The notes: generated by a model from the sequence alone, not told the origin. A DNA stretch of 64,000 nt from a candidate division FCPU426 bacterium (GCA_963719085.1 CAVRAL010000001.1:1024001-1088000), one strand, 5' to 3'; counted from the stretch's first letter, positions 5,555 to 26,832 are shown. Numbers and translations: made by a program.

Positions 5555-6283
5555 CTAACCGTTGGCCGCGCAAACCGCTTCCGACAAAACCTGAACCCGT
5601 CCCTGACCGCAAGCCGGACAATCCGGGTTTCGCTTCGGAACCATCGTTCGAATCCGCCGTTGCGCCGCGTCCACTTTGAAAAGCCGCAAGGGGCCCTTTC
5701 CTTGCCCCAGACGCCTCGCTTCCCGAGCCACCCAATAGCCGATCGACTGCGAAAAGGCGCCTAAGACGCCCGCTTCCTGGCAAGTCGGCATGGCGAAAGG
5801 CGGGGGAATTTTCGGCAGAAGACATCGCAGGCAAGCCGTTTGGCCCGGCCGAACGCCGAGCACTTGGCCTTCCAGCTTCACCACGCCCGCGTGCACATAG
5901 GGCTTGTCGAGTTTGACGCACCAGTCGTTCAAGAAAAATTTCTTTTCCAACCGATCAAGCCCGTCAACGACCAAGTCATATTGGGGAAGATTTTCTTTCA
6001 AACTTTCGGCCGTCATCATTCCCTCAAGGGGAATAATCTTAGTCTTAGGAAAACGGGAGTTCAGATAATCTCGGGCCGCCGCGACCTTGGGCCGCCCCAC
6101 ATCTTGGGCGGCGTAAAGGATTTGACGATGTAAGTTGGAAAGTTCTACTTTGTCAAAATCCATCAATCCCAAGGTTCCCACCCCGGCTTCGGCCAAGGCC
6201 AAGCCCGAAGGGCATCCCAGCCCTCCCACACCCACGATTAAAATTTTTAAATCGCTGAAATTCCTCAAAGTCACCCGCTCCAC
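5555..6283 (-). CDS. ThiF/MoeB/HesA E1-like adenylyltransferase lacking the N-terminal RYSRQ segment
   Basis: GVGGLG, DFDKVELSNLHRQ, CLRC and CPAC zinc motifs, candidate active Cys in PTCQEAG. Confidence 0.9.
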   Translation of the reverse strand: MERVTLRNFSDLKILIVGVGGLGCPSGLALAEAGVGTLGLMDFDKVELSNLHRQILYAAQDVGRPKVAAARDYLNSRFPKTKIIPLEGMMTAESLKENLPQYDLVVDGLDRLEKKFFLNDWCVKLDKPYVHAGVVKLEGQVLGVRPGQTACLRCLLPKIPPPFAMPTCQEAGVLGAFSQSIGYWVAREARRLGQGKGPLRLFKVDAAQRRIRTMVPKRNPDCPACGQGRVQVLSEAVCAANG

Positions 6284-6285
6284 CC

Positions 6286-7410
6286 CTAGTTCGACGACAA
6301 AGGCATTTTACGGATAACCTGGCCATCTTTGGAATAGCGCAGTGAATAAGTTTCGATTGGAAGGCTTCGGCCGGCGCTATCCTTCCCGTCCCATTGCACC
6401 CAAACCTGCTCACTGCCGGTGAGCGTCTTTTTCAACAAGGTTTGGACCAGCTGCCCCGACTCATCCGTGACATCCAACTGATAAATCCCCGGGCCGTCCA
6501 TCAAGCTGACATAAAAGCTTTGGGGTTGCTGAATTCCCGCCGGAACCGGTGTCAGCGTGACCGTGGGCCAAGGAGTGTTCGTCGGAAATATTGTGGGCGC
6601 CATATGTACCTCCATCGTTTCGGGCGCCTCCCAGGAATCCGCCACCCGCGCTTGACGGTCCGGCGCGTCGACCCCATTGCCCGCGGGAATCTCGGGCGTC
6701 GGCGTGGGGGAAACCCACGAGGGCGTCGGAGTGAAGGCCTCTTCTTGCGCGAAGTAAAAAGGCGTCGGGGTCGGCCGATTGGACCTCGTCTCGCAACGGG
6801 GATTGGGCAGTACATCCAAGTGAAACTGGATTCGAAAAAGTTGTTTTTCGCCCTTTTGGCTCACCGCCCCGGAAGAACCGGAAGCCGAAAGAAAGGCCAC
6901 TTGATCCCCATCCGGATCGGGCAGGATGGCGGCGTAAGGCACATGCCCCGCGTCAAAAGCCTTCACCCAGGCATGGTCGTCAAAACCGGGTTGCTGCCAT
7001 CCGTAGGGTTCCAAGTCCCCCGGAAGGTATAACGCCCGATGCTGGTCCACCTCGCTGCTGGTGAAAATTTGATGGCTGCCGTCCGAAAGGACCAACCGAA
7101 GGATATAAGCCACGCCGATGGTGGAATGCCCGGGGCTTTCAACGCGGATGGCCAGGGTATTGTCCCGTTGAAAAAAACAAAGATGATCCGGGAGGGCGAT
7201 CCGGGTCTGGGGCCCGCTTTCCAATCCGGTATAGTTTTGGGTAAAAAGATGATGGCCGTTCAACCAAAAATCCGCGGTCTGATCCGCCGAAACCTGAAAA
7301 GACGCTTCTTGGATATAGCGGTCGGTCATTTGGGCGTGAAGGCTGGAGCCCCAGGCGCCCGCCGCCCAAAAGACGCCGATCATTATTTTATCGCGCAAGT
7401 CCCATTTCAT
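6286..7410 (-). CDS. Secreted protein with beta-sandwich N-domain, Pro/Thr linkers and C-terminal FlgD-Ig-like domain
   Basis: Signal peptide; W..PGFDDHAW; PTPTP repeats; G.LV.TL...WDGKDSAG motif. Confidence 0.65.
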   Translation of the reverse strand: MKWDLRDKIMIGVFWAAGAWGSSLHAQMTDRYIQEASFQVSADQTADFWLNGHHLFTQNYTGLESGPQTRIALPDHLCFFQRDNTLAIRVESPGHSTIGVAYILRLVLSDGSHQIFTSSEVDQHRALYLPGDLEPYGWQQPGFDDHAWVKAFDAGHVPYAAILPDPDGDQVAFLSASGSSGAVSQKGEKQLFRIQFHLDVLPNPRCETRSNRPTPTPFYFAQEEAFTPTPSWVSPTPTPEIPAGNGVDAPDRQARVADSWEAPETMEVHMAPTIFPTNTPWPTVTLTPVPAGIQQPQSFYVSLMDGPGIYQLDVTDESGQLVQTLLKKTLTGSEQVWVQWDGKDSAGRSLPIETYSLRYSKDGQVIRKMPLSSN

Positions 7411-7451
7411 GGGCCATAGTATAATCAGAAAAAGGCGGGCGATTAAAACCG

Positions 7452-8411
7452 ATGGCCGAAAAAACAATCCTCCAATCCAAAGTGAAGGCGGCCTGCGCCG
7501 GCCAAACGCTGCTGGATTACGTCTCGGGGCGTTTCCGCTATCAAAGCCGGGATCATTGGGAAAAAACGATCGAAAGCGGGGATTTGACCCTCAATGGAAA
7601 AAAAACCTCGGCCCAAGTCCCGCTTCAAACCGGCGATCTTTTAGCCTATGCCGTGGTCCTCAATGAGCCTCCCGTCGACACCGACATCCAAATTTTACAT
7701 GAGGAAGAGGGCTTTCTGGTGGCCGTGAAGCCCGGATGGCTCCCTTCCCACGCCGATGGAAACTTCATCAAAAACACTTTCATCCATTTGGTGCAAAAGA
7801 CGCTCAAACAAAAGGGCTGGGGCGGCAAGGCCCACCTGGCCCATCGTTTGGATCGGGAAACCAGCGGGCTGATGGTGGTGGCGAAAACCAAAGACGCCCT
7901 CCGCCACCTGACCCGGCAATTTGAGACTGGGTTAGTGCGCAAACAATACCAAGCTATCGTCCAGGGCCTGGTCAAGGAGGATTCCTTCGAGGTCGGCGGC
8001 GCCATCGGCCTGGATCCCCAAAGCCAAATTTCCATGCGCCGAACGGTGGTTCCCTTGGAAACCCCCGGCGCCCAAAAAGCCTCGACTCATTTTGAGGTGC
8101 TCCAGCGGCTCGTCCAAAACACCTTGGTGCTTTGCCAGCCCCAAACCGGCCGCACGGGCCAGATCCGGGTTCACTTGGCTTCCATCGGCCATCCTTTGGT
8201 GAACGACAAGCTATATGGCCGCTCCGATGAGCAGTTTTTGGAGTTCGTTCGGGATTCCAAAGCCGGTTTGTGGGAAAAGGACCCCGGCCGGCGGCCCCGC
8301 CATTTGCTGCACGCTTCCCGCCTTGAGTTTGCCCATCCCGCCACCGGGAAGACCGTGGTTTTTGAATCCGAACTGCCTAAAGACATGAAATCATTTTTAG
8401 AGTCCGAATAG
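7452..8411 (+). CDS. RluA/RluD-family pseudouridine synthase
   Basis: HRLDRETSG, TGRTGQIRVHL, LHA motifs. Confidence 0.95.
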   Translation: MAEKTILQSKVKAACAGQTLLDYVSGRFRYQSRDHWEKTIESGDLTLNGKKTSAQVPLQTGDLLAYAVVLNEPPVDTDIQILHEEEGFLVAVKPGWLPSHADGNFIKNTFIHLVQKTLKQKGWGGKAHLAHRLDRETSGLMVVAKTKDALRHLTRQFETGLVRKQYQAIVQGLVKEDSFEVGGAIGLDPQSQISMRRTVVPLETPGAQKASTHFEVLQRLVQNTLVLCQPQTGRTGQIRVHLASIGHPLVNDKLYGRSDEQFLEFVRDSKAGLWEKDPGRRPRHLLHASRLEFAHPATGKTVVFESELPKDMKSFLESE

Positions 8412-8541
8412 AAAACGCCTCTTTTTTCAAAGGAATCAGGGTAACGTTATCCCAATAATACCCTTCTTTTGTTTTGCCTTCTTTCTGTCTCCCTTTAGAA
8501 TGATGCGAATTATTAGCCAACTTTATTTGAAAGAAAAACCA

Positions 8542-8916
8542 ATGGACTCTGCCCAGTCGCTGGTCGCCTCCAAGGATAAAAGAAATCATCCTCGAACTAA
8601 TTGCCACATCCCCGTCAAACTCCGCAATATGGATCCGGACGATCTTCCCAAAGAGGCCAAATCCCTCCGGCCGCAAACACTTCAAACGTTCATCTCGGAT
8701 CTCAGTTTGGGGGGCGCATTCTTGGAGTTTCCGGGGGCGTTGAAAGCCGGTAAGCTTTATCACCTTCAAGTGGAGATGCCAAAACCTTATACCGCCTTGG
8801 TGGCTTTCATCGAGGTACGTTGGGCGAATGACAAGGGCGGGGGGATCCAATTCTTGGCCATCCAAGAAGAACGGCTCAAAGACCTCAAAAACTACCTGCA
8901 AACCCAGCCAGCTTAA
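8542..8916 (+). CDS. PilZ-domain protein
   Basis: RNHPR (RxxxR) and DLSLGG (DxSxxG) c-di-GMP motifs. Confidence 0.85.
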   Translation: MDSAQSLVASKDKRNHPRTNCHIPVKLRNMDPDDLPKEAKSLRPQTLQTFISDLSLGGAFLEFPGALKAGKLYHLQVEMPKPYTALVAFIEVRWANDKGGGIQFLAIQEERLKDLKNYLQTQPA

Positions 8917-8935
8917 GAAACCACAACAAAAACTC

Positions 8936-9012
8936 AAATCCATTTAACAATGATGTCCCGGGTGTCTTTGACTTCAATAGGGGACCCCGGGGCATCATTG
9001 CTAAATGGATTT
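8936..9012. repeat. Long inverted repeat between convergent genes (bidirectional terminator or MITE/REP-like)
   Basis: 27-bp arms with 2 mismatches; shares TTAACAATGATG/CATCATTG ends with 10961-11136. Confidence 0.7.
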
Positions 9013-9024
9013 TTGTTAGAGACT

Positions 9025-9981
9025 CTAAGGCTTTTTCTCGAACTCATCTTCCAAACTAAAATAACGCTCGCCCATGTCGCAACAGATCGTCACGATCCGC
9101 GCCTGAGGGCCATACCGGCGGGATAAGCGCAGCGCCGCCGCCACATTCGCGCCGGAGGAAATACCCAGCATCAGCCCTTCCTCCTGGGCCAGGCGTTTGG
9201 TCATTTGAAAAGCTTCCTCATCCCCGACCGTCACCACTTCATCCAAAATCGACCGATCCAACACCGGCGGAATGAACCCGGCGCCGATGCCTTGGATACG
9301 GTGCGTACCGGGCGCGCCGCCGCTTAAAACCGCGGACTGGGCCGGTTCCACGCCCACTATCTTTATCGCCGGATTCTTCGCCTTAAAGTAGCGTCCCACT
9401 CCGGTGATGGTCCCGCCCGTTCCGATACCCGCCAGAAAAAGATCGAACTGGCCCTGGGTGTCATGGTCGATCTCGGGCGCGGTGGTCTTGAAATGGGCTT
9501 CCGGATTGGCCGGATTGGCGAACTGTTCCGGCATAAAATAATCCGGGTGCGCCTCTTTCAAGACCCGCGCCCGATCGATCGCCGCTTTCATGAGTCCCGC
9601 CGCCGGCGTCAGGATCAGTTCCGCGCCATAAGCCTTGAGCAGGACCCGTCGCTCGTGGCTCATGTCTTCGGGCATGGTGAGAATCAACCGGTAGCCCCTT
9701 TGGGCGCAAATCATGGCCAAGCCGATTCCCGTATTGCCGCTGGTAGGCTCCACCACCGTTCCGCCGGGTTTTAAAAGACCCTTCGCCTCCGCGTCCGACA
9801 GCATGGCCAAGGCGATCCGATCTTTCACGCTTCCGCCCGGATTGTTGAACTCAAGCTTGCAAAGAATTTGGGCGTGGTCTTTTTCGGGGACGCGTTGAAG
9901 CTTTAAAAGGGGGGTTTTGCCGATGAGCTGGGTAACGTCGGCGGCCGCCGAAAGCCGGGGGGAATCTTGCGGATCGGTCAT
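9025..9981 (-). CDS. cysK: Cysteine synthase A
   Basis: NPGGSVKDR, PTSGNTG, GIGTGGT, HRIQGIGAG. Confidence 0.95.
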   Translation of the reverse strand: MTDPQDSPRLSAAADVTQLIGKTPLLKLQRVPEKDHAQILCKLEFNNPGGSVKDRIALAMLSDAEAKGLLKPGGTVVEPTSGNTGIGLAMICAQRGYRLILTMPEDMSHERRVLLKAYGAELILTPAAGLMKAAIDRARVLKEAHPDYFMPEQFANPANPEAHFKTTAPEIDHDTQGQFDLFLAGIGTGGTITGVGRYFKAKNPAIKIVGVEPAQSAVLSGGAPGTHRIQGIGAGFIPPVLDRSILDEVVTVGDEEAFQMTKRLAQEEGLMLGISSGANVAAALRLSRRYGPQARIVTICCDMGERYFSLEDEFEKKP

Positions 9982-10652
9982 GGGGTGACTTTCGCGCCCC
10001 GGGCAATCAAATCCGCCGGGCATTTGGATGAGGGAAAAACCGGATGATGAAAAGACAAGCCCTCATTAAGCGAGGTGATCCAAACCTTATTTTCCACCGG
10101 GCTCTCGTTCGTTAATAGCCATTGCAAAAGCTCCGCCGCCGCCATGGCGCCTAAAAGACGCCGCGCCTCCGGGCTTCCCTCGTTAAAGGCTTTGGGATTT
10201 AAGGTCTCAAAACACTCAAAGCAGGGACCCGAGGATGATTGAAAGCGGGAGAAGAAAAGCGCCCAACCGCTGCCCGCGCACCAGCCAAAAAAGGCGGGCC
10301 GGGGCTTCAAACGCAAAGAACGATTCAGGCCTCGGCGAAGTTCCGGATCGTCGGTGAGGATTAACAGGGCCGAAAGATCCTCGGAGTCCCTCAGGGATTT
10401 TGAAAGCCTGAGATCGCTTTCGGGATAGCGCTTTTTCCAGGAAACCAGGTCGAACGATTCGGCGGTTTGAAGACGGATCGACGAAAGGCCGGAAGTCGTC
10501 AGGGCGAGAAGAGCCGCTTCCAAAGCGGTTCCCTCCCCCACAAGCCCCACGGCGGTTTGGGCCCATTTTTCCTGGCCCGCCTCGCCCACGGCCGGAAGGA
10601 TCACTTGGCGGCTGAACCGCTCTTTCCACTGGCTTCGGTCGGAAATTTCCAC
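9978..10652 (-). CDS. Degenerate ThiF/MoeB-like protein (keeps ERFSRQ, lacks ATP-binding motifs)
   Basis: ERFSRQVILPAVGEAGQEK; GEGTAL replaces GxGGLG; no SNLxRQ; one CFEC. Confidence 0.75.
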   Translation of the reverse strand: MEISDRSQWKERFSRQVILPAVGEAGQEKWAQTAVGLVGEGTALEAALLALTTSGLSSIRLQTAESFDLVSWKKRYPESDLRLSKSLRDSEDLSALLILTDDPELRRGLNRSLRLKPRPAFFGWCAGSGWALFFSRFQSSSGPCFECFETLNPKAFNEGSPEARRLLGAMAAAELLQWLLTNESPVENKVWITSLNEGLSFHHPVFPSSKCPADLIARGAKVTP

Positions 10653-11537: not shown

Positions 11538-12773
11538 TCAACGGCCCGCGGTGGCCAATTGGGTCTTTTCAAAAGCTTCCAGATTCGGCTGAATCACCGT
11601 GACTTTTCCCAAATGATCCGCGACCGCCTCTTGGGTCTTCAGTCCGGTTCCCGTGATATAAGCCACCGTCACCGCGTCCGGATCCAGATCGCCCGACTCG
11701 GCGAGTTTTTTCAAACAAGCGATGGTCACACCGCCGGCGGTCTCGGCGAAAATCCCCTCGGTGCGGGCCAGGAGCTTAATGCCTTCCACAATCTCATCGT
11801 CATTGGCCATTTCGGCCCCGCCGTTGGACTCCGCGATGGTCCTCAAAGCGTAATAACCGTCCGCCGGATTTCCAATGGCCAAAGACTTGGCGATGGTGTT
11901 GGGTTTCACCGGCCGGAAGGTATCCGTCTTGGCTTTATAGGCCGTGGTGACTGGAGAGCAGCCTTCCGCTTGCGCGCCGAAGACCCGCATTTTCTTTTCG
12001 GAAATGAGCCCCACCTTCACGAATTCCTGGGTGCCTTTCCAAATTTTGGTTAAAAGCGAGCCCGACGCCACCGGGACCACGACTTGGTCCGGCGCCTGCC
12101 AGCCCAATTGCTCGGCCGTCTCAAAAGCCAGGGTCTTGGACCCCTCCGCGTAATAGGGCCGCATGTTGATGTTCACGAAAGCCCATTTATATTTTCCGGC
12201 GATCTCGCTGCAAAGACGGTTGACGTCGTCGTAATTGCCGTTAACCCCGATTAAGTTAGGATCATAAACCAAGGCGCCCACAACCTTTCCCTTTTCCAGA
12301 TTGGAAGGAATAAAGACAAAGCGCTTAAGTCCGCCGCGCGCGCCATAGGCCGCCACCGCGTTGGCCAAGTTCCCCGTGGAAGCGCAGGCCAAGGTGTCAA
12401 AACCAAGCTCGATGGCCCGGGTCGAAGCCACCGCCACCACCCGGTCCTTAAAGGAGTGGGTCGGGTTGGCGCAATCGTTTTTCAGATAAAGATTTTTGAG
12501 TCCCAGCTCTTTGCCCAGCCGGTCGGCCCGCAGGAGGGGCGTGTAGCCTTCTTGCAGGGTGTTGTATTGGGTGCCTTCCACGGGCAAAAGTTCCCGATAG
12601 CGCCAAATATTGAGGTCGCGGGAACGGATCTTTTCGCGGGAAATGTCTTTTTTGATTTTGTCGTAGTCGTAAGCGGCTTCCAGGGGGCCAAAGCAAAACT
12701 CGCAAACATATTTCGCGGTCTTCTCGTATTCCTGGCCGCATTCCCGGCATTTTAAGGACTTCACGTAACTCAT
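11538..12773 (-). CDS. Threonine-synthase-like PLP enzyme (paralog with N-terminal CxxC/CxxC), SAM-regulated
   Basis: NPTHSFKDR, CASTGNLA, SLAIGNPADG; upstream of carrier gene. Confidence 0.9.
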   Translation of the reverse strand: MSYVKSLKCRECGQEYEKTAKYVCEFCFGPLEAAYDYDKIKKDISREKIRSRDLNIWRYRELLPVEGTQYNTLQEGYTPLLRADRLGKELGLKNLYLKNDCANPTHSFKDRVVAVASTRAIELGFDTLACASTGNLANAVAAYGARGGLKRFVFIPSNLEKGKVVGALVYDPNLIGVNGNYDDVNRLCSEIAGKYKWAFVNINMRPYYAEGSKTLAFETAEQLGWQAPDQVVVPVASGSLLTKIWKGTQEFVKVGLISEKKMRVFGAQAEGCSPVTTAYKAKTDTFRPVKPNTIAKSLAIGNPADGYYALRTIAESNGGAEMANDDEIVEGIKLLARTEGIFAETAGGVTIACLKKLAESGDLDPDAVTVAYITGTGLKTQEAVADHLGKVTVIQPNLEAFEKTQLATAGR

Positions 12774-12812
12774 GATTCTTTTCCTCCGACGCCCGGAGCC
12801 TTTCACCAAAAG

Positions 12813-12842
12813 AAAAAGGCTTCCATCCCGAGATGGAAGCCT
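12813..12842 (-). terminator. Terminator of the SAM-I expression platform
   Basis: AGGCTTCCATC-TCGG-GATGGAAGCCTTTTT. Confidence 0.9.
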
Positions 12843-12997: not shown

Positions 12998-13026
12998 ATA
13001 GTATAAAAGTCGCCAGGCCCTGTCAA
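12998..13026 (-). promoter_or_regulatory. Sigma70-type promoter of the SAM-I leader
   Basis: TTGACA-17 nt-TACTAT. Confidence 0.75.
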
Positions 13027-18020: not shown

Positions 18021-19600
18021 GATTTGCGTCTTTCACGGTCTTTCAAAAGCTTGTATTCAATCGAGTCGACCAAGGCCTCCCAGGAAGCCTCGATGATATT
18101 TTCGGAAACACCCACGGTTCCCCAACTGTCTTTCTTATCCTGACTCTCGATTAAAACCCGAACCTTGGCCGCGGTTCCTTCTTTGGCGTCCAAGACCCGA
18201 ACCTTAAAATCGGTCAAACGGACGTCTTTGAGGCTGGGATAAAATTTCGTCAGCGCTTTTCGCAAAGCCTGGTCCAGGGCGTTGATGGGACCATCTCCCT
18301 CGCCCACGGTATTTTCTAAAACCCCGTTCACCTTCACCTTAATGGTGGCTTCGGAAACCATGTCCCCTTCGTTGCGGTTTTCAACGATAACCCGGAAACC
18401 CACCAAATCGAAAAAACTCCGGTGTTGGCCCATGGCCTTTTTCAAGAGCAAGTCGAAGGACGCTTCCGCTCCCTCAAATTGATAGCCTTCGCTCTCCATC
18501 TTTTTAACGGTCTCAATGACTTCCCGGGCTTCGGACTTGTCTTTATTGAGGCGGATGTTTTTGCTGCCCGCCTTATGCATCACGACGGCCAAACCGGCCT
18601 GGTCGGACATCAGGATATTTCGGGCGTTACCCACCCGCGCCGGATCGATATGTTCATAGGTCTTGGCGAATTTATTGACCGCCGCGATGTGGACCCCCGC
18701 CTTGTGGGCGAAGGCGCTTTTACCGACATAGGGGGCGTTATCCCGGGGGTGTAGATTACAAATTTCATCCACCCGGCGCGAAACTTCGGTTAAGCGGTCA
18801 AGATGAATGGGTTTGATAAAAGACGCTTGGTACTTCAGGACCAAATTCGGAATCATGGAGGTCAAATTGGTGTTGCCCGTGCGTTCGCCGTAACCGTTCA
18901 CGCAGCCTTGAATCTGGGTCACGCCCGCCGCCACCGCCGCGTGGCTGTTGGCCACGGCCAAGTCGCCATCATTATGGCAATGAATGCCCAAAACCGCTTC
19001 AGGAAATCGCTGGCGGACCCGGGTGACCACGGCGTCCACGTCTTCCGGCAAGGACCCGCCGTTGGTATCGCAAAGCACCAAACAGTCGGCGCCTCCGGCC
19101 AGCGCCGCCTCCAAACATTGCAAAGCGTATTCGGGATTGGCTTTATAGCCGTCGAAAAAATGCTCGGCGTCGTAAAACATCTCGTCCACGCGGGATTTTA
19201 AAAATTTCACCGAATCCTGGATCAGCTCAAGATTGGCGCCCAGTGAGATTTTAAGCGCGTGCTCCACGTGAAAGTCCCAGCTTTTGCCGAAAATGGTGAC
19301 GGTGGAAACACCCGCCTTGACGAGATTGACCAAGACCGGATCTTGGGCCGCTTTGCGGTTCGCCCTGCGGGTCATTCCAAAAACCGACAATTTGGCGTTT
19401 TTGAGTTTTAATTTTTTGGCTTCCTTGAAAAAAGCGTCGTCCTTCGGGTTCGCGCCGGGCCAGCCGCCCTCAATGTAATGAAGGCCCAAGCTGTCCAAAG
19501 CTTCCGCCAGGCGCAGCTTATCCTTCACGGATAAATTGATCCCTTGGGTTTGGGGCCCTTCCCTGAGGAGGGCATCGTAAAGAACCAGCTTTTCGCTCAA
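18017..19600 (-). CDS. cimA: Citramalate synthase
   Basis: LREG, IEGGWPGANPKD, DAEHFFDG, HCHND, GYGERTGN. Confidence 0.92.
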   Translation of the reverse strand: MSEKLVLYDALLREGPQTQGINLSVKDKLRLAEALDSLGLHYIEGGWPGANPKDDAFFKEAKKLKLKNAKLSVFGMTRRANRKAAQDPVLVNLVKAGVSTVTIFGKSWDFHVEHALKISLGANLELIQDSVKFLKSRVDEMFYDAEHFFDGYKANPEYALQCLEAALAGGADCLVLCDTNGGSLPEDVDAVVTRVRQRFPEAVLGIHCHNDGDLAVANSHAAVAAGVTQIQGCVNGYGERTGNTNLTSMIPNLVLKYQASFIKPIHLDRLTEVSRRVDEICNLHPRDNAPYVGKSAFAHKAGVHIAAVNKFAKTYEHIDPARVGNARNILMSDQAGLAVVMHKAGSKNIRLNKDKSEAREVIETVKKMESEGYQFEGAEASFDLLLKKAMGQHRSFFDLVGFRVIVENRNEGDMVSEATIKVKVNGVLENTVGEGDGPINALDQALRKALTKFYPSLKDVRLTDFKVRVLDAKEGTAAKVRVLIESQDKKDSWGTVGVSENIIEASWEALVDSIEYKLLKDRERRKS

Positions 19601-20826
19601 GATTTTCTCCCAGCTTTATCCAACCGGAATTTCTTGTGGATGGCGTTAACGGCCTTGGCCACGTCTTTTTGGTCGATGATCACCGATATTTTGATCTCCG
19701 ACGTGGAGATCATCTCGATGTTCACGCCTTCTTCGGCCAGCGCTTTAAACATACCCGCGGCCACGCCCGAATGGGACCGCATCCCCACCCCGACCACCGA
19801 CACCTTGGCGATATCCTCGTCGGCGATGACGCCGGCGGGCTTCAAAGTCTTAGCCGCTTCCGTGACGACCTTCATGGCTTTTTTGAATTCCGATTTGTCC
19901 ACGGTGAAGGAAACGTCCGAATGGCCCTTCTCCCCGATGTTTTGGATGATCATGTCCACGTTCACGCCAGCGGTTCCCAATTTGGAGAAAAGGATGGAAG
20001 CGACCCCCGGCCGGTCCGGCACGCCCCGCACCGTGATCTTGGCCTCGTTTTTATTGTAGGTCACCCCGCTGATGACCACTTTTTCCATGGCTTTGGTCTC
20101 ATGCATCACGATGGTCCCTTCCTTTTCATTAAATGTCGGCCGGACATGGATTTTGATGTCAAAGTTTTTGGCGAATTCCACGGACCGGGCGTTCAAAACT
20201 TGGGCTCCCGCGCTGGCCATCTCGAGCATCTCATCGTAACTGATGGCCGAAAGCTTCCGGGCGTTTTTCACGATTCCCGGATTGGCGGTAAAAACACCGT
20301 CCACATCCTTATAAAACTCACAAACATCGGCTTTCAGCGCCGCCGCGATGGCCACGGCCGTCAAGTCGCTTCCGCCCCGGCCCAAGGTGGTGATTTCATG
20401 CTCCTTATTTTCGCCTTGGAAACCGGCCACGATGACGACCTTGCCTTCGTTCAAAGCCTTGCGCAGGGTCGAGTCGCCGACTTTAACGATGCGGGCCTTT
20501 CCGTGAGCGCTGTCGGTCACGATCCCCACCTGGGGGCCGGTGAAGGATATCGCGTCGCAACCCAGGCTTTTCAAGGCAATGGCCAAAAGCGCGATCGATT
20601 GCTGCTCCCCGGTGGCGAGCAAAACGTCCATTTCCCGCTCGTCAGGTTCGTCGGTGATTTTCCAGGCCAAGTCGATGAGATTATCCGTCGTGTCCCCGGG
20701 CGCCGAAACGACGACCACGATTTGGTTTCCCTGCTTTCGGTTTTTGGCGATCCGTTTGGCCACTTCCAACATCTTGGCGGCGTCCGCCACCGAGGATCCG
20801 CCGAATTTTTGAACGAGTAGGGCCAA
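19597..20826 (-). CDS. lysC: Aspartate kinase
   Basis: VQKFGGSSV, TTLGRGGSD, two ACT domains; TTG start. Confidence 0.97.
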   Translation of the reverse strand: MALLVQKFGGSSVADAAKMLEVAKRIAKNRKQGNQIVVVVSAPGDTTDNLIDLAWKITDEPDEREMDVLLATGEQQSIALLAIALKSLGCDAISFTGPQVGIVTDSAHGKARIVKVGDSTLRKALNEGKVVIVAGFQGENKEHEITTLGRGGSDLTAVAIAAALKADVCEFYKDVDGVFTANPGIVKNARKLSAISYDEMLEMASAGAQVLNARSVEFAKNFDIKIHVRPTFNEKEGTIVMHETKAMEKVVISGVTYNKNEAKITVRGVPDRPGVASILFSKLGTAGVNVDMIIQNIGEKGHSDVSFTVDKSEFKKAMKVVTEAAKTLKPAGVIADEDIAKVSVVGVGMRSHSGVAAGMFKALAEEGVNIEMISTSEIKISVIIDQKDVAKAVNAIHKKFRLDKAGRKS

Positions 20827-20828
20827 GG

Positions 20829-21890
20829 TTAAATCCCCATAATTTTTAAGATGTCTTGAACTTCCGGCTTCACCACGTGATGCTTCGCCTTTTGTTTCAC
20901 CGCCGTGTCCGGATCTTTCAAACCATGCCCGGTCAGCGTGCAAACGATCCGCTTTTGACCGTCCAGGAAAAATTTTTCTTTGTTCTTTTTAATCACGCCC
21001 GCCAAGGAAGCCGCGGAGGCAGGCTCACAAAAGATGCCTTCCATGGACGCCAGCATGTTATAGGCTTCCAAAATCTCATCGTCGGTGACCGCCTCGATCA
21101 ATCCCCGGGACTCGTCCCGGGCGGCTTCCGCCGGCTTCCAGGAATAGGGATTCCCAATCTTGATGGCGGTGGCGATGGTCTTGGGATCCGAAATGATCTT
21201 TTTTTCCACGATCGGCGCCGAGCCCGCGGCTTGGAACCCGCACATTTTAGGAAGCTGCTTGGCGATTCCCTTGCGTTGGTATTCCTTATAACCCTTCCAA
21301 TAAGCCGTGATATTACCGGCGTTGCCCACAGGAATGGCGTGATATTCGGGCGCGTCGCCCAAGGTATCCACGATCTCAAAGGCGGCGGTTTTTTGGCCCT
21401 CAATGCGGTAAGGGTTGGCCGAGTTGACCAGGGTCACCGGATATTGGGTCGTGATCTCACGGACCAAGTCGAGGGCTTTATCGAAGTTGCCCTCAATCGC
21501 GATGACTTCAGCCCCGTGGATGAGGGTCTGGGCGATCTTACCCAGCGCGATGGCTCCGTGCGGTAAAATTACGCAGCATTTCAATCCCGCCGCGGCCGCG
21601 TAAGCCGCCGCGGAGGCTGAGGTGTTGCCGGTGGAGGCGCACATGACGATTTTACTTTTTTCCTCAACCGCCTTGGAAATGGCCATGGTCATGCCCCGGT
21701 CCTTGAAGGAACCGGTCGGATTAAGACCCTCAAACTTCATGTAAATTTTAAGACCGTTGCCGAGTTTTTCAGAAATGTGGCGAGCGAACAAAAGCGGCGT
21801 GTCGCCTTCCTTTAAGGTGATGACGGGGGTGGCATCGGTGACCGGCAGATAGGGGCGGTATTCCTCAATGAGGCCCTTCCAATAGGCCAT
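20829..21890 (-). CDS. thrC: Threonine synthase (housekeeping)
   Basis: EGLNPTGSFKDRG, CASTGNTSAS; lies between hom and lysC. Confidence 0.96.
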   Translation of the reverse strand: MAYWKGLIEEYRPYLPVTDATPVITLKEGDTPLLFARHISEKLGNGLKIYMKFEGLNPTGSFKDRGMTMAISKAVEEKSKIVMCASTGNTSASAAAYAAAAGLKCCVILPHGAIALGKIAQTLIHGAEVIAIEGNFDKALDLVREITTQYPVTLVNSANPYRIEGQKTAAFEIVDTLGDAPEYHAIPVGNAGNITAYWKGYKEYQRKGIAKQLPKMCGFQAAGSAPIVEKKIISDPKTIATAIKIGNPYSWKPAEAARDESRGLIEAVTDDEILEAYNMLASMEGIFCEPASAASLAGVIKKNKEKFFLDGQKRIVCTLTGHGLKDPDTAVKQKAKHHVVKPEVQDILKIMGI

Positions 21891-21891
21891 C

Positions 21892-23211
21892 TTATTCTCC
21901 CCGGTCCATGCGGATGAGAAGCGTTTCTTCCCGCACGAAAGGCAGGCCATTGATCTTTTTCAAGGCTTCCTGCACGTTTTTCTCAACAGCCTCATAGGTC
22001 ACGATCACCACCGGCACCTTGTCGCCCTTTTTCTGTTCTTTTTGGATGACCGAGGCGATGGAAATTTGATGCTCCCCCAGAATTCGGGCAATGGCCGAAA
22101 GCACGCCCGCCTGGTCCACCACGCTGAACTTTAAATAATAGCGGGACTTGATGTCGCCCATCTTGCGGATGCGCTTTACTTGGGGGTTATCGCTCAAAAA
22201 CCAGTTGTTGGACGTCTCGCCCGCCACATTGTCATGTACGGCGCGGCTGACATAAATGAGATCGCTCATGACCGCGGAGGCCGTGGGGTTTTTCCCGGCG
22301 CCCAGGCCGTAATACATGGTGGTTCCCACGAAATCGCCGGTCACCAGGACGCCGTTATATTCCCCATCCACCTTGGCCAGCAAATGGTCTTCCGGAATCA
22401 AAGTAGGATGCACCCGAACTTCCAGCTCATCGCCCTCAACTTCAGCGATGGCGAAAAGTTTTACCACGCGGCCAAACTCTTCCTTGGCGAACTCAATATC
22501 CTGGACCGTAATGCGCTCAATGCCCTCAACATAAATGTCCTCGACCTTGACCCGTTTGGAAAAGGCCAGCGACGCCAGGATGGCCAGCTTGTGGGCCGCG
22601 TCCATGCCGTTGATGTCGAGCGTTGGATCGGCTTCGGCCAAACCCTTTTTCTGGGCCATTTGCAAAGCTTCTTTGAAAGTTTTCTTTTCCTCGGTCATCT
22701 TCTGAAGGATGAAATTGGTGGTGCCGTTCACGATGCCGTAAATGGAAGTGATGTTATTGGGAGCCAATCCGTCGTTGATGGCTTGAATGACCGGTATCCC
22801 GCCGCAGACGGCGGCCTCGAAATAAATGTCCACTTTATTCTGGCGGGCGGTTTGGATGAGCTCATCCCAATGCACCGACAAGACCGCCTTGTTGGCCGTG
22901 ACGATATGTTTGCCCTGGCGCATGGCGTCCAGGAGATAGGTGCGGGCCGGCTCGTAGCCGCCCATCAGTTCCAAAACGATATCGATCTCGGGATCGCCGA
23001 CAATATCCTCGAAACTGGTGGTCATCATGCCTTCGGGCACGACCACTTCCCGAACCTTGGCGATGTCCTGCACCAGGATTTTTTTGATCTTGATCTGGGC
23101 GCCGATCTTGTCTTCGATCAGGGTGCGGTTTTTTTCCAATAGACGGTAAAGCCCCTGGCCCACATTGCCGAAGCCCACCATGCCAATTTGAATGACCGAT
23201 TTTTCAGCCAT
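21892..23211 (-). CDS. hom: Homoserine dehydrogenase
   Basis: GFGNVG, VTANKA, EAAVCGGIP, C-terminal ACT domain. Confidence 0.97.
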   Translation of the reverse strand: MAEKSVIQIGMVGFGNVGQGLYRLLEKNRTLIEDKIGAQIKIKKILVQDIAKVREVVVPEGMMTTSFEDIVGDPEIDIVLELMGGYEPARTYLLDAMRQGKHIVTANKAVLSVHWDELIQTARQNKVDIYFEAAVCGGIPVIQAINDGLAPNNITSIYGIVNGTTNFILQKMTEEKKTFKEALQMAQKKGLAEADPTLDINGMDAAHKLAILASLAFSKRVKVEDIYVEGIERITVQDIEFAKEEFGRVVKLFAIAEVEGDELEVRVHPTLIPEDHLLAKVDGEYNGVLVTGDFVGTTMYYGLGAGKNPTASAVMSDLIYVSRAVHDNVAGETSNNWFLSDNPQVKRIRKMGDIKSRYYLKFSVVDQAGVLSAIARILGEHQISIASVIQKEQKKGDKVPVVIVTYEAVEKNVQEALKKINGLPFVREETLLIRMDRGE

Positions 23212-23241
23212 GCCAACGGTCTCCTGGAATTACCGGAATAG

Positions 23242-23271
23242 AAAACGCCCGGGACCAACGGCCCGGGCGTC
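23242..23271 (-). terminator. GC hairpin with short U-tract between the aminotransferase and hom
   Basis: ACGCCCGGG/CCCGGGCGT followed by TTTT on minus strand. Confidence 0.55.
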
Positions 23272-23334
23272 TAAAAGCGAGTGGAAATACTAACGAAAAA
23301 AGCCTTTGTTTTCAACCAAAAGACCCGTGGCGGC

Positions 23335-24501
23335 CTAAGCCACCGCGTCTTTAAAGCGCTTCAGGCCTTCTTCAATGACCTTTTCGCTGGTGGCGTAAGA
23401 AAGCCGCAAATAACCCTCGGCCCCAAAGGCGATTCCGGGAGCCAAGGCCAATTTGGCCTTCTCGAGTAGGTAGTCCGAAAGCTCCAGGGAGTTGGCGCGG
23501 CCTGGTTTGAAAAGCCCCTTCACGTTGGGAAACACGTAAAAGGCCCCCGCCGGCTTCAGGCACTTCACGCCCGGAATGGCGTTAAGGCCGTCCACGATCA
23601 TGTCCCGGCGTTTTTGGAAAATCGCCACCATCTTTTGAATTTCGGAGTCCGGCAAGGTCAAGGCCGCGACGGCCGCCTTTTGGGAAATCGAGGAGGGGTT
23701 GGAAGTCGAGTGGCTTTGGAAATCCCCCACCGCCTTCATCACGTTCGCGGGTCCGGCCATATAACCGATGCGCCAGCCAGTCATGGCGTAGGCTTTCGAC
23801 ATCCCGTTGATCAGGATCGTTTGAGCCGCCACTTCTTTGGACAAGGTCGGAAAACAAACATGCGTTTCCCCATAAACGAGCTTGGCGTAAATTTCGTCCG
23901 AAATGACCCAGAGCTTATGTTGAAGCGCCAACTCCGCGATGCCTTCCATCGTTTTGCGGTCAACTACCGCGCCCGTGGGGTTGCTGGGCGAATTGAGCAG
24001 AATGACTTTGGTCTTCGGGGTGATCTTGGCTTTCAAAGCCGCCGCCGTCAATTTGAAGCCATCGGCTTCCGGACATTCCACGTAAACCGGAACGCCCCCG
24101 GCCATCTTGACTTGCTCCGGATAGGTCACCCAATAGGGTGAAGGAATCAAAACCTCGTCACCCGGATTGACCAAGGCCAGCATGGCATTATAAAGCGAAT
24201 GTTTGGCGCCATTGGAGATGACAATGTCGTTCGGGGAATATTGGATTTTATATTCGCGGTTCAGGTAATCCCCCACGGCTTTACGGAGTTCAACGGTTCC
24301 CGCCGCGGGCGTGTATTTATGGTGGCCTTCGTCGATAGCCTTCTTGGCGGCGTCACAGGCGATTTGCGGCGTGTTGAAATCGGGTTCCCCTGCGCCGAAA
24401 TTGAGGATGTCTTGGCCTTCTTCTTTGAGCTTTTTGGCCTTCGCGTCGATGGCCAAAGTCATCGAGGGGGCGATTTGCTTCATGCGTTCAGCGATATCCA
24501 T
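23335..24501 (-). CDS. aspC: Aspartate aminotransferase (class I/II PLP)
   Basis: GAGEPDF, NSPSNPTG, SDEIY, SKAYAMTGWRIG. Confidence 0.9.
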   Translation of the reverse strand: MDIAERMKQIAPSMTLAIDAKAKKLKEEGQDILNFGAGEPDFNTPQIACDAAKKAIDEGHHKYTPAAGTVELRKAVGDYLNREYKIQYSPNDIVISNGAKHSLYNAMLALVNPGDEVLIPSPYWVTYPEQVKMAGGVPVYVECPEADGFKLTAAALKAKITPKTKVILLNSPSNPTGAVVDRKTMEGIAELALQHKLWVISDEIYAKLVYGETHVCFPTLSKEVAAQTILINGMSKAYAMTGWRIGYMAGPANVMKAVGDFQSHSTSNPSSISQKAAVAALTLPDSEIQKMVAIFQKRRDMIVDGLNAIPGVKCLKPAGAFYVFPNVKGLFKPGRANSLELSDYLLEKAKLALAPGIAFGAEGYLRLSYATSEKVIEEGLKRFKDAVA

Positions 24502-24541
24502 TTCTCAATCTCCTGAATTTTAAAACTTCTTCGAAAACCCA

Positions 24542-24640
24542 TTTCACCACCAAGACACCAAGGCACCAAAAACGAATTATTCCGATTTAATCAAAACTTT
24601 TTCTCTTGCCACCTTGGCGTCTTGGTGCCTTGGTGGTAAA
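24542..24640. repeat. REP-like long inverted repeat built of CCAAG units
   Basis: ACCACCAAGACACCAAGGCACCAA ... TTGGCGTCTTGGTGCCTTGGTGGT. Confidence 0.75.
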
Positions 24641-24652
24641 AGCCTTTTTTCA

Positions 24653-25834
24653 TTAAGAAAACAGCTTCTTCATATTCCGCAAGGCCTGACGGCTGCGGTC
24701 TTTGTTTTCCACCAGGGCCATGCGGATATAGCCTTCGCCCAAGTCCCCAAAACCCGTGCCCGGAGCGACAGCCACACCCGCTTCTTTTAAGAGCATCATG
24801 GAAAAGTCCAGCGAGTTCATTTTCGAAAACTTCGGCGGGATTTTCGCCCACAAATACATGGCGGCGCGGGGCTTATCCACCGGCCAGCCCATTTGATTCA
24901 TGCCCTCCACCATAATGTTGCGGCGCTCTTGGTAAACCGCCGCCAACTTGCGCAGGTTTTCTTCCGGGCTATCCAATGCCGTAATCGCCGCCACCTGGAT
25001 CGGGGTGAAGATTCCGTAATCCATGTAGCTCTTGATTTTGGCCAAGGCCCCGATAATTTTTGGATTCCCGGCCGCGAAGCCAATGCGCCAGCCCGCCATG
25101 TTATAGGACTTGGACATGGTGAAAACCTCAACGCCCACGTCTTTGGCGCCCTTCACCGAAAGAAAGCTCGGCGACTTGTAGCCGTCATAAACAATGTCGG
25201 CATAAGCCAGATCATGGACAACCGTCACCTGGGTTTTCTTGGCCCACTTCACGATGTCCTTGAAATATTCTTGGTCCACGCTGACGGTCGTCGGGTTATG
25301 GGGGAAATTGATGATCAGCACCTTCGGCTTGGGGCTGGATTTTTTATAAGCCTTTTCCAGGTTTTTAAAAAAGACTTCCGGACCCTCGATGATGGGCACG
25401 GAAACGATTTTTCCGCCGGCGATGATGATGCTGTAATGGTGGATCGGGTAAGTGGGATTCGGCACCAAAATTTTGTCGCCCCGGTTGAAAAGCGCCAACC
25501 CTAAATGGGCCAACCCTTCTTTGGAACCGATGACCGAGACCGCTTCGGTCTTAGGATCAATGGAAACGTTATATTTGCGCTCGTACCAGCGGGAAACCGC
25601 CTTGAGGAAGGCCGGAATCCCTTTGGACGTGGAATAGCGGTGGGCTTTCTTGTCCCGCACGACCTCAATCAATTTGTCCACGATGGGCTGGGGAGTTTGG
25701 TTGTCCGGATTCCCCATGCCGAAGTCGATCACATCCACGCCCTTGTGGCGCGCCGCCAGTTTTTCGGCGTTCAACCGCGCGAAAATATAAGGCGGGAATT
25801 TTTTGATGAGTTCGGACTCAAATTGAAAAGCCAT
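24653..25834 (-). CDS. AlaC/LL-DAP-type aminotransferase (class I/II)
   Basis: DFGMGNPD, IGSKEGLAHL, HDLAYAD, SKSYNMAGWRIG. Confidence 0.9.
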   Translation of the reverse strand: MAFQFESELIKKFPPYIFARLNAEKLAARHKGVDVIDFGMGNPDNQTPQPIVDKLIEVVRDKKAHRYSTSKGIPAFLKAVSRWYERKYNVSIDPKTEAVSVIGSKEGLAHLGLALFNRGDKILVPNPTYPIHHYSIIIAGGKIVSVPIIEGPEVFFKNLEKAYKKSSPKPKVLIINFPHNPTTVSVDQEYFKDIVKWAKKTQVTVVHDLAYADIVYDGYKSPSFLSVKGAKDVGVEVFTMSKSYNMAGWRIGFAAGNPKIIGALAKIKSYMDYGIFTPIQVAAITALDSPEENLRKLAAVYQERRNIMVEGMNQMGWPVDKPRAAMYLWAKIPPKFSKMNSLDFSMMLLKEAGVAVAPGTGFGDLGEGYIRMALVENKDRSRQALRNMKKLFS

Positions 25835-25911
25835 GGTGTCTCACTTGTCGCTAATAAAGTACAAGCGCGAAGGTTCGCCCTTCGCGCTTGCGGGTGTGGC
25901 TGTTGATTGGT

Positions 25912-26832
25912 TTATAATTTTACGGTAGGAAGGCTCGCGAATCGATAAAATTCTTTGGCCCTTTGGCGCACCTTGCCCAAGGTCAAGCCCGCCACGCCCT
26001 TCACGCCCAACTGCTCCACCGTGAAGGAAGCGGTGAGGCTTCCCGCCACAATGGCTTGCTTCAAGGTTTCCAGATTCACTTTGCCCAGACGGGCCAGATA
26101 GCCGATAAAACCTCCGGCAAAAGTATCTCCCGCGCCGGTCGGATCCACCACCCGTTCCAAGGGCATCGCCGGGGATAAAAAGACGCCTTCCGGGCCGATG
26201 AGCATGGCGCCATGCTCCCCCTTCTTGACAATGACCCGCTTGGGCCCCATTTTCAAAATCGCCCGGGCCGCCTGCTTCAAATGGGCCTCGCCGGTCAAGA
26301 GACGCACTTCCTGGTCGTTCAAAACCATGAGATCGACTTTGCCCATGACCTTCAACAAATCCTTTCGGGCGATATTGATCCAAAGGTTCATGGTATCCAA
26401 GAGCGTGAATTTGGGATGACGCATTTGCTGGGTGACCTTGTATTGAAGCGCCGGGTGAATGTTAGCTAGGAATAGGAACGGAATATTTCGGTCCTTTTCG
26501 GGAATCTTCGGATCAAAGGTGGCGAAAACATTCAAGTCGGTTTTCAGGGTATAGGCGATGTTCATGTCTTCCTTCTTATAGAAGCCCTTCCAATAAAAGG
26601 TCTTGCCCTTGGCCCGAACCAAGCCGTCCAATCCGATTTTTTTCGACTTGAGCAATTTGAGATCGTTAGGATGAAAGTCTTCCCCGACTACACCCACAAT
26701 ATGGGTTTTGGTATAAAGGGACGAGGCCAAGCTGGAATAGGTCGCGGCGCCGCCCAGCGTGCGTGGGGTAGAACCATAGGGGGTTTTCAATCCGTCATAA
26801 GCCACCGACCCAACAATGAGTACTTCGGACAT
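25912..26832 (-). CDS. PfkB-family carbohydrate/nucleoside kinase
   Basis: LGGAATY, DPTGAGDTFAGG. Confidence 0.93.
   Translation of the reverse strand: MSEVLIVGSVAYDGLKTPYGSTPRTLGGAATYSSLASSLYTKTHIVGVVGEDFHPNDLKLLKSKKIGLDGLVRAKGKTFYWKGFYKKEDMNIAYTLKTDLNVFATFDPKIPEKDRNIPFLFLANIHPALQYKVTQQMRHPKFTLLDTMNLWINIARKDLLKVMGKVDLMVLNDQEVRLLTGEAHLKQAARAILKMGPKRVIVKKGEHGAMLIGPEGVFLSPAMPLERVVDPTGAGDTFAGGFIGYLARLGKVNLETLKQAIVAGSLTASFTVEQLGVKGVAGLTLGKVRQRAKEFYRFASLPTVKL

Follow-up and report, generated by a model that had tools for sequence, protein, structure and literature searches.

The E. coli proteins MoeB and ThiF (Protein Data Bank (PDB) entries 1jw9 and 1zud) are homodimeric E1-like enzymes in which each chain carries both an ATP site and an N-terminal arginine finger, and the arginine of the finger motif (RYSRQ) completes the ATP site of the partner chain in trans. 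This arginine is Arg14 in MoeB and Arg11 in ThiF. In a 64,000-nucleotide stretch of DNA from a candidate division FCPU426 bacterium (GCA_963719085.1, CAVRAL010000001.1:1024001-1088000), hereafter the window, whose positions are counted from its first letter, two proteins have MoeB and ThiF as their closest solved sequences and folds, and in them the finger and the ATP site are found on separate chains. A short ThiF/MoeB adenylyltransferase retains the ATP site and lacks the finger helix, and a degenerate ThiF-fold protein, encoded 3.7 kb away, keeps the finger helix and lacks the ATP motifs, so that two adenylation-fold modules are present, one dead and one active. With somewhat better than even confidence, this pair is read here as a split asymmetric E1-like enzyme acting in a homocysteine pathway of the MetM/MetO type, and as a new variant of the asymmetric E1 design.

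The combination of an inactive and an active adenylation domain has been taken to characterise E1s of the eukaryotic type and the Bil defence system's E1. The eukaryotic heterodimers NAE1(APPBP1)-UBA3 and SAE1-UBA2 resemble the proposed pair in that each is built from two paralogous adenylation-fold chains, of which only the active one has a working ATP site. An arginine of the inactive half reaches the active site in canonical E1s, as is proposed for the window pair; in the available text of one report, Arg57 of UBA1 contacts the gamma-phosphate site (PMC12355090). On the other hand, the window pair differs from eukaryotic E1s in having no catalytic-cysteine domain insertion (no large insertion interrupts the alignment of the short form with MoeB) and no ubiquitin-fold domain, and no E2-like or ubiquitin-fold-domain match was found in the 64-kb window. 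Its genes belong to a sulfur-carrier metabolic setting rather than to protein conjugation, and its active subunit is a minimal 242-amino-acid (aa) protein of the MoeB type. Because a sequence search of the PDB ranks MoeB/ThiF far above UBA3/UBA2, the resemblance to the eukaryotic heterodimers is, as judged from sequence, convergent or parallel rather than a matter of orthology.

Among bacterial proteins, the nearest precedent is BilD, the E1 of the antiviral ubiquitination-like Bil system, in which an inactive adenylation domain supplies Arg9 to a single active domain; the available portion of the same paper describes all other known bacterial E1-like proteins, those of sulfur-carrier pathways included, as homodimers (PMC10557695). 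Unlike the window pair, BilD is a single chain that includes a CYS domain and has an E2 as its partner. The degenerate protein gave no match to the PADLOC model for BilD, and this model was not among the best 25 of 33 matches for the short ThiF. A defence-system origin of the pair was considered and rejected: in PADLOC the short form matched E1-E2 domains only locally, and the degenerate form gave no match.

Outside bacteria, a two-gene arrangement of the same kind is provided by yeast Tcd1-Tcd2, a ThiF-fold ct6A synthase. As far as the available text of the report extends, the inactive Tcd1 carries the finger and donates Arg59 to the active, finger-less Tcd2, so that the heterodimer parallels the proposed pair; it differs in being eukaryotic, in belonging to the TcdA family, in acting on tRNA rather than on a carrier, and in having a finger that is nearly dispensable (PMC13139853). 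In the literature searched, including the available part of Iyer et al. (2006), no two-gene asymmetric bacterial ThiF/MoeB is described; a survey of the E1-like superfamily by Burroughs, Iyer and Aravind lay outside this search and may bear on novelty.

In the proposed enzyme, the short protein would be the catalytic subunit, binding ATP-Mg and adenylating the C-terminal glycine of a MoaD/ThiS-type sulfur carrier encoded nearby (Table 1). It has lost the N-terminal helix which, in MoeB/ThiF homodimers, reaches with its arginine into the ATP site of the partner. We infer that the degenerate protein would form a heterodimer with it and, while possessing no ATP site of its own, would supply Arg15 in trans. 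The complex would have a single active site, as in eukaryotic E1s, where an inactive adenylation domain is paired with an active one. Once activated, the carrier would be converted into a thiocarboxylate and used by a threonine-synthase-like (ThrC-like) enzyme comparable to MetM to make homocysteine, with the cysteine synthase CysK as a possible second user. An earlier note on this DNA had suggested that a dead, finger-bearing paralogue complements a finger-less active ThiF; as an interpretation, this suggestion is strengthened by conservation of and purifying selection on both forms, shared contigs, operons of metagenome-assembled genomes (MAGs) that hold both halves, single-chain fusions and one-gene relatives, each of which is described below.

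The short ThiF scores 203.3 bits against Pfam PF00899 (cut-off 28.1), with residues 8-224 aligned to profile positions 17-238 of 238 and the first 16 profile positions missing. The protein starts about 17 residues ahead of its Gly loop, and its alignments begin at residue 30 of MoeB (1jw9_B, extending to 249) and residue 27 of ThiF (1zud_1). GVGGLG, DFDKVELSNLHRQ, CLRC and CPAC are all present, and the ATP site contains GxGGxG, DxD, SNLHRQ, the equivalents of Lys86 and Asp130, and two CxxC pairs; the arginine of SNLxRQ corresponds to MoeB Arg73. Crossover-loop Cys168 is also retained, so that the short form equals MoeB and ThiF in its ATP-site residues, Zn-binding CxxC pairs and crossover-loop region. 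The arginine-finger segment, by comparison, is absent by profile, by alignment and by inspection of the upstream frames, and no RYSRQ-like helix lies at the right distance in any frame upstream. An N-terminal extension or a frameshift can be dismissed in view of the upstream stop codons; the lone near match, LRYSK, is a chance resemblance in the C-terminus of the upstream open reading frame (ORF), in another frame and at the wrong distance. The motif content described in the earlier note, the missing RYSRQ segment and the in-frame TAA that bars an extension are all borne out.

None of the NCBIfam equivalogs for MoeB, ThiF, MoeZ or UbaA claims the short protein, all 23 matches falling below their cut-offs (the best, NF006444, at 196.3 bits against 449). 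Among the 120 best relatives listed (49-100% identity), a finger motif of the form R-x-x-R-Q/H occurs in none, and the Gly loop is found in 109, mostly 4-20 residues from the start, the other 11 being fragments that do not include it. After clustering at 50% identity, P0123 (415 bits) is the sole representative in the range of the window's short family, the next scoring 273 bits. In a quick tree of 53 rows, built without the degenerate family because of its great divergence, the window-type short clade comprises 21 rows and has a Shimodaira-Hasegawa-like approximate likelihood-ratio (SH-aLRT) support of 100.

The degenerate protein matches PF00899 at only 36.1 bits, with residues 13-64 on profile positions 1-52. 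Its Arg15 stands 24 residues before Gly39 of the decayed loop, as the earlier note had counted between ERFSRQ and GEGTAL; this spacing is canonical, since in full-length ThiFs the first arginine of the motif lies 27 and the finger arginine 24 residues before the Gly loop. The ATP motifs are gone: GEG stands in place of GxGGxG, and the region from SNLxRQ to the lysine is lost, a loss noted earlier that extends to the whole family (0 of 90 members). A profile of the family recovered 92 proteins at E < 1e-40, and conservation was calculated from the 90 of at least 195 aa. Arg15 and Gln16 are among 33 positions conserved in at least 97% of these, and mean top-residue frequency reaches 0.85 for residues 11-20 and 0.80 for residues 21-30, values equalled by only two other stretches (CPCxECFE, 0.86; residues 171-180, 0.84). 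An AlphaFold2 monomer model has a mean predicted local distance difference test (pLDDT) value of 89.6 and a predicted template modelling (pTM) score of 0.86, only residues 1-20, which form the finger helix, being poorly placed; its best PDB matches are MoeB (1jw9_B, TMq 0.75) and ThiF (1zud, TMq 0.74), at 18-20% identity.

Purifying selection on the degenerate gene is indicated by nonsynonymous divergence (dN) of 0.18-0.45 at saturated synonymous divergence (dS); omega is 0.09-0.29 where computable, and since dS is saturated in all informative pairs these values are bounds only. In three of four matched genome pairs its dN is roughly double the value for the short ThiF. Given the conservation, the low dN relative to dS and the confidently predicted fold, the degenerate protein is a ThiF-fold pseudo-enzyme that has been maintained, and its gene is not decaying. 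Its family also has invariant motifs of its own, namely CPCxECFE..NPKAF (residues 141-156), His203, Lys210-Cys211 and a C-terminal GAxVTP (219-224), and these Cys and His residues could together make up a 3Cys-1His metal site in place of the usual four-Cys one. For a TOMM/SagC-type docking protein as the identity of the degenerate form, NCBIfam offered only weak local matches (TIGR03882, 21 bits against a cut-off of 36.9), and the short form is matched in the same way. Another degenerate ThiF, keeping the finger and both CxxC pairs and lacking the Gly loop and SNLxRQ, is encoded on a 3-kb contig of a Binatia MAG (L014, 268-933). The motif GPCFECFE of the degenerate family recurs in an otherwise unrelated 347-aa protein of a Coxiellaceae MAG (L045, 9308-10348; 22 bits), which may be a docking-type E1-like protein. 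Look-alikes in the Protein Atlas, which serve as leads only, form clusters of 53-111 members most often labelled Candidatus Binatota.

To compare gene contexts, species-representative genomes were scanned with the degenerate-family profile, and 47 loci were obtained, of which L001-L013 hold true family members. Carrier, NIL, degenerate gene and CysK follow one another in this order in all of L001-L012. In five of the loci (L003, L004, L007, L011 and L012) the short ThiF is encoded 5.8-8.5 kb downstream of the degenerate gene; L009 probably ends just ahead of the expected short ThiF and, apart from three loci considered below, the remaining contigs are too short to show it. The two forms also share contigs. 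Of 37 listed short-ThiF entries on contigs of at least 10 kb, 17 share the contig with a degenerate-family protein or locus, as judged by identical contig size (14 via degenerate-family entries and three via L004, L007 and L011). Conversely, at least 14 of 26 degenerate-family entries on contigs of at least 10 kb are matched by a short ThiF among the best 120 short relatives listed.

More compact arrangements of the same two halves were found in other lineages. In MAGs assigned to Proteobacteria (L042), Binatia (L043) and UBP10 (L046), a single operon consists of a SAM-I (S-adenosylmethionine) riboswitch, a finger-less ThiF, a ThrC-like gene, a carrier, a CysK/M-like gene, NIL and a 151-aa remnant, whose sole Pfam match covers positions 1-44 of the ThiF profile, that is, the finger region, and which has no Gly loop. 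In addition, five clusters at 50% identity (P0234, P0287, P0308, P0339 and P0362; 474-490 aa), drawn from the best 150 such representatives for the short-family profile, fuse a degenerate N-domain to an active MoeB-type C-domain. The finger persists in the N-domain, from which the Gly loop has disappeared, and the C-domain lacks such a motif. When compared with the degenerate-family profile, the N-half gives an hhalign probability of 87% (E 4e-6). The fusions score as MoeB-type, and the PADLOC BilD model reaches only 31.5 bits, on P0287. A whole-chain model built from five sequences only (pLDDT 69, pTM 0.80) reaches TMq values of 0.54-0.61 against the single-chain E1s UBA7, UBA1 and UBA6, with some 600 columns aligned and a root-mean-square deviation of 8-12 Å, and of 0.41 against a single MoeB/ThiF domain. 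The model fits a pseudo-dimer of an inactive and an active domain, and is weak evidence for it.

Related clusters with carrier and CysK contain a single full-length ThiF, with finger and active site on one chain, in L018, L019, L024 and L036. Two of these (L019 and L024) belong to Omnitrophota and also have ThrC, with NIL in L019; L036 belongs to Methanomassiliicoccales, and L018, from Anaerolineae, encodes a fusion of ThiF with carrier and rhodanese. In the quick tree, all four ThiFs belong to the full-length relatives closest to the short clade.

Several lines of evidence weigh against the asymmetric heterodimer. According to the available text of one report, the arginine finger is not required in MoeB, ThiF and Tcd, the Tcd1 R59A substitution cut the product ratio by only 26%, and E. 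coli TcdA has no arginine finger (PMC13139853); a finger-less ThiF may therefore work alone. Among the best 150 representatives, 24 other clusters look finger-less from their N-termini, as far as unverified start positions allow. No short ThiF is found within about 10 kb downstream of the degenerate gene in L006, L010 and L013, and a matching degenerate gene is lacking for 20 of the 37 listed short-ThiF contigs of at least 10 kb. All nine loci with a short ThiF do hold a degenerate gene, and this count is biased because motifs of the degenerate family itself served to retrieve the loci. Furthermore, at residues ~107-116 of the window-type short family, directly after the Mg-binding Asp, DRLEKKF replaces the DNFPTRY of full-length relatives, and Arg111, Lys114 and Lys115 are invariant or nearly so; such basic residues could substitute for the finger in cis. 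The degenerate gene is also the fastest-evolving of its cluster, at 37-55% identity to the window, compared with 86-92% for ThrC, 76-87% for the carrier, 62-78% for NIL and 71-82% for CysK.

The reported dispensability of the finger, the other finger-less clusters and the basic residues near the Mg site would suit independent functions for the two proteins, an alternative that is possible and clearly less probable than the heterodimer. The short ThiF would then be a self-sufficient finger-less homodimer, and the degenerate protein would serve the carrier pathway in a non-catalytic role, for instance as a scaffold that binds the carrier, as a chaperone of the MetM-like enzyme or as a relay via Cys144, Cys147, His203 and Cys211, with its N-terminal motif kept for its own folding or dimerisation. 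The strong conservation of family motifs unrelated to the finger (CPCxECFE, NPKAF and GAxVTP) and the location of the window pair in different transcription units agree with such a division. However, the finger motif, whose only known role is to complete the ATP site of a partner, is among the best-conserved parts of a protein that has no ATP site, and the 151-aa remnant retains little that is recognisable beyond it. The fusions, moreover, place a finger-bearing dead domain ahead of a finger-less active one, and the degenerate gene occupies the operon in which relatives carry a full ThiF.

It is improbable that the finger-less ThiF is instead completed by a full-length MoeB/ThiF paralogue whose gene lies in another part of the genome, and that the degenerate protein is unrelated to it. 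The window covers 64 kb of a contig of about 1.44 Mb, and other ThiF, MoaE and ThiG genes, if present, lie outside it; within the window there is no further ThiF gene besides the pair. Both the operons of L042, L043 and L046 and the fusions, however, pair a finger-less domain specifically with a degenerate one, and the contig-sharing counts point to the degenerate protein as the partner. The idea that the degenerate gene is decaying as a pseudogene, or is what neutrally remains of a ThiF once present in the operon, is close to refuted by the conservation data: its divergence and the splitting of the gene into two or three ORFs in two MAG loci (L013, 385-958; L011, 9668-10652) would agree with decay, but ThrC is fragmented in L011 as well, making assembly error as likely there, and the frame is open in the window, L001-L010 and L012, dN lies far under saturated dS, the fold is predicted with confidence, and the stop codon overlaps the CysK start in a manner consistent with translational coupling.

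The metabolic setting of the proposed heterodimer is suggested by the operon around the degenerate gene. By analogy with MetM, the ThrC-like gene behind the SAM riboswitch probably encodes a homocysteine synthase. The MetM/MetO thiocarboxylate pathway of Streptomyces albulus was described by Hasebe et al. (2024), as cited in a GapMind preprint of 2026; as presented in the available part of that preprint, a threonine-synthase homologue adjoins a GG-type sulfur carrier, homocysteine is synthesised and the carrier requires C-terminal maturation; the window shares the gene pairing and the need for maturation, and would share the product. That pathway uses MoeZ, a fusion of E1 and rhodanese, together with the hydrolase Mec, whereas rhodanese and JAMM are absent from the 64-kb window, and the NIL protein and the split E1 are additional in the window; the likeness was drawn from descriptions. 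In 15 of the 16 carrier relatives with a stop codon within 12 residues, 1-5 variable residues come after the GG, and this variable tail implies that a C-terminal peptidase is needed. Tails such as LF, SF, R, K and IHPNS occur past GG in the window and L001-L012. No JAMM peptidase, rhodanese, MoaE or ThiG domain is encoded by the other 58 ORFs in the window.

SAM-I riboswitches lie upstream of ThrC in six of the eight loci scanned (L001, L002, L003, L004, L008 and L012); no match was obtained in L005, which holds only the 3' end of ThrC, or in L007, which begins inside NIL. In the window, the carrier, NIL, the degenerate subunit and CysK are all located behind the riboswitch. The earlier note had proposed that only the Arg-donor half is under SAM-I control, and this holds at most for the window. 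The operons of L042, L043 and L046 have the riboswitch ahead of the finger-less ThiF, and both halves follow it. The riboswitch-ThrC unit of L003 stands apart from the cluster of carrier, NIL, degenerate gene and CysK, with unrelated genes (TPR, peptidase S51 and GH127) occupying the intervening 3.4 kb or so, and the spacing is the same in L011 and L012.

Under the one-active-site reading, three architectures can be distinguished, namely two distant genes as in the window, one riboswitch operon with a 151-aa half, and a single-chain fusion. A broader and more doubtful proposal is that the sulfur-carrier E1-like enzymes of uncultured bacteria have repeatedly turned the symmetric MoeB/ThiF homodimer into an enzyme with one active site, which would represent a prokaryotic metabolic counterpart of the step that gave rise to eukaryotic E1s, and that in the window lineage SAM could set E1 activity through the dosage of the Arg donor alone. 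If the asymmetric reading is true, a two-gene asymmetric ThiF in a methionine pathway, with operonic and fused relatives, would mean that such asymmetry evolves in plain metabolism too. It would also provide small bacterial proteins for asking what a trans arginine and a dead subunit contribute. The annotation of the degenerate protein, which sources name "hypothetical" or "adenylyltransferase", would likewise be corrected.

Table 1. Coordinates of the riboswitch operon, the two ThiF-fold genes and associated elements (window positions unless a locus is named)
Feature	Position	Strand	Remarks
Promoter-like site	12998..13026	(-)	TTGACA, 17-nt spacer, TACTAT; 5' of the riboswitch; consensus match only
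SAM-I riboswitch aptamer, RF00162	12859..12979	(-)	83.6 bits against a gathering score of 44.4; full model 1-108
Terminator-like hairpin with T-run, between aptamer and first gene	12817..12842	(-)	11-pair stem, 6 GC pairs
Threonine-synthase-like pyridoxal phosphate enzyme (ThrC), N-terminal zinc ribbon	11538..12809	(-)	PALP 227 bits; NF006050 310 bits against a cut-off of 303
MoaD/ThiS-type sulfur carrier, 98 aa	11167..11463	(-)	C-terminal GG followed by LF; ThiS PF02597 68.4 bits
Stand-alone NIL domain protein, 81 aa	10658..10903	(-)	PF09383 54.1 bits
Degenerate ThiF-fold protein, 224 aa, without ATP motifs, with arginine-finger helix; proposed Arg-donor subunit	9978..10652	(-)	
ERFSRQ codons (residues 11-16)	10605..10622	(-)	Arg15 corresponds to MoeB Arg14 by alignment
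GEGTAL codons (residues 39-44), remnant of the GxGGxG ATP loop	10521..10538	(-)	
Cysteine synthase CysK	9025..9981	(-)	TIGR01139 438 bits against a cut-off of 351
Secreted-looking protein, 393 aa, C-terminal FlgD-Ig-like domain	6286..7467	(-)	25.9 bits, just below the Pfam cut-off of 27
In-frame TAA blocking N-terminal extension of the short ThiF	6308..6310	(-)	
Short ThiF/MoeB adenylyltransferase, 242 aa from GTG, without arginine-finger helix; proposed catalytic subunit	5555..6283	(-)	
GVGGLG codons (residues 18-23), intact ATP loop	6215..6232	(-)	
One-operon pair	L043 6138-11679 (also L042, L046)		A 419-aa radical-SAM protein overlaps the end of the remnant

On the minus strand, the order is promoter-like site, riboswitch, hairpin, ThrC-like gene, carrier, NIL, degenerate ThiF and CysK (Table 1). 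The hairpin is probably the expression platform of the riboswitch, and the true start of the ThrC-like protein is likely an ATG 12 codons inside the listed ORF. The degenerate gene begins 5 nucleotides past the NIL stop codon, and its own TGA overlaps the probable CysK start codon (ATG 9981-9979) within ATGA. Between CysK and the 393-aa gene lie two plus-strand genes (PilZ and RluA-like), and the short ThiF follows directly 3' of the 393-aa gene. A homologue of the latter is located directly upstream of the short ThiF in the window, L003, L004, L007, L011 and L012, and this association could reflect either a functional link or mere synteny. Near the riboswitch operon are also encoded an aspartate kinase (19597-20943) and a homoserine dehydrogenase (21892-23211), which form part of a minus-strand cluster (19597-26832) about 7-14 kb upstream that further includes two class I/II aminotransferases and a PfkB-family kinase; this cluster fits a local neighbourhood of methionine and threonine precursor genes.

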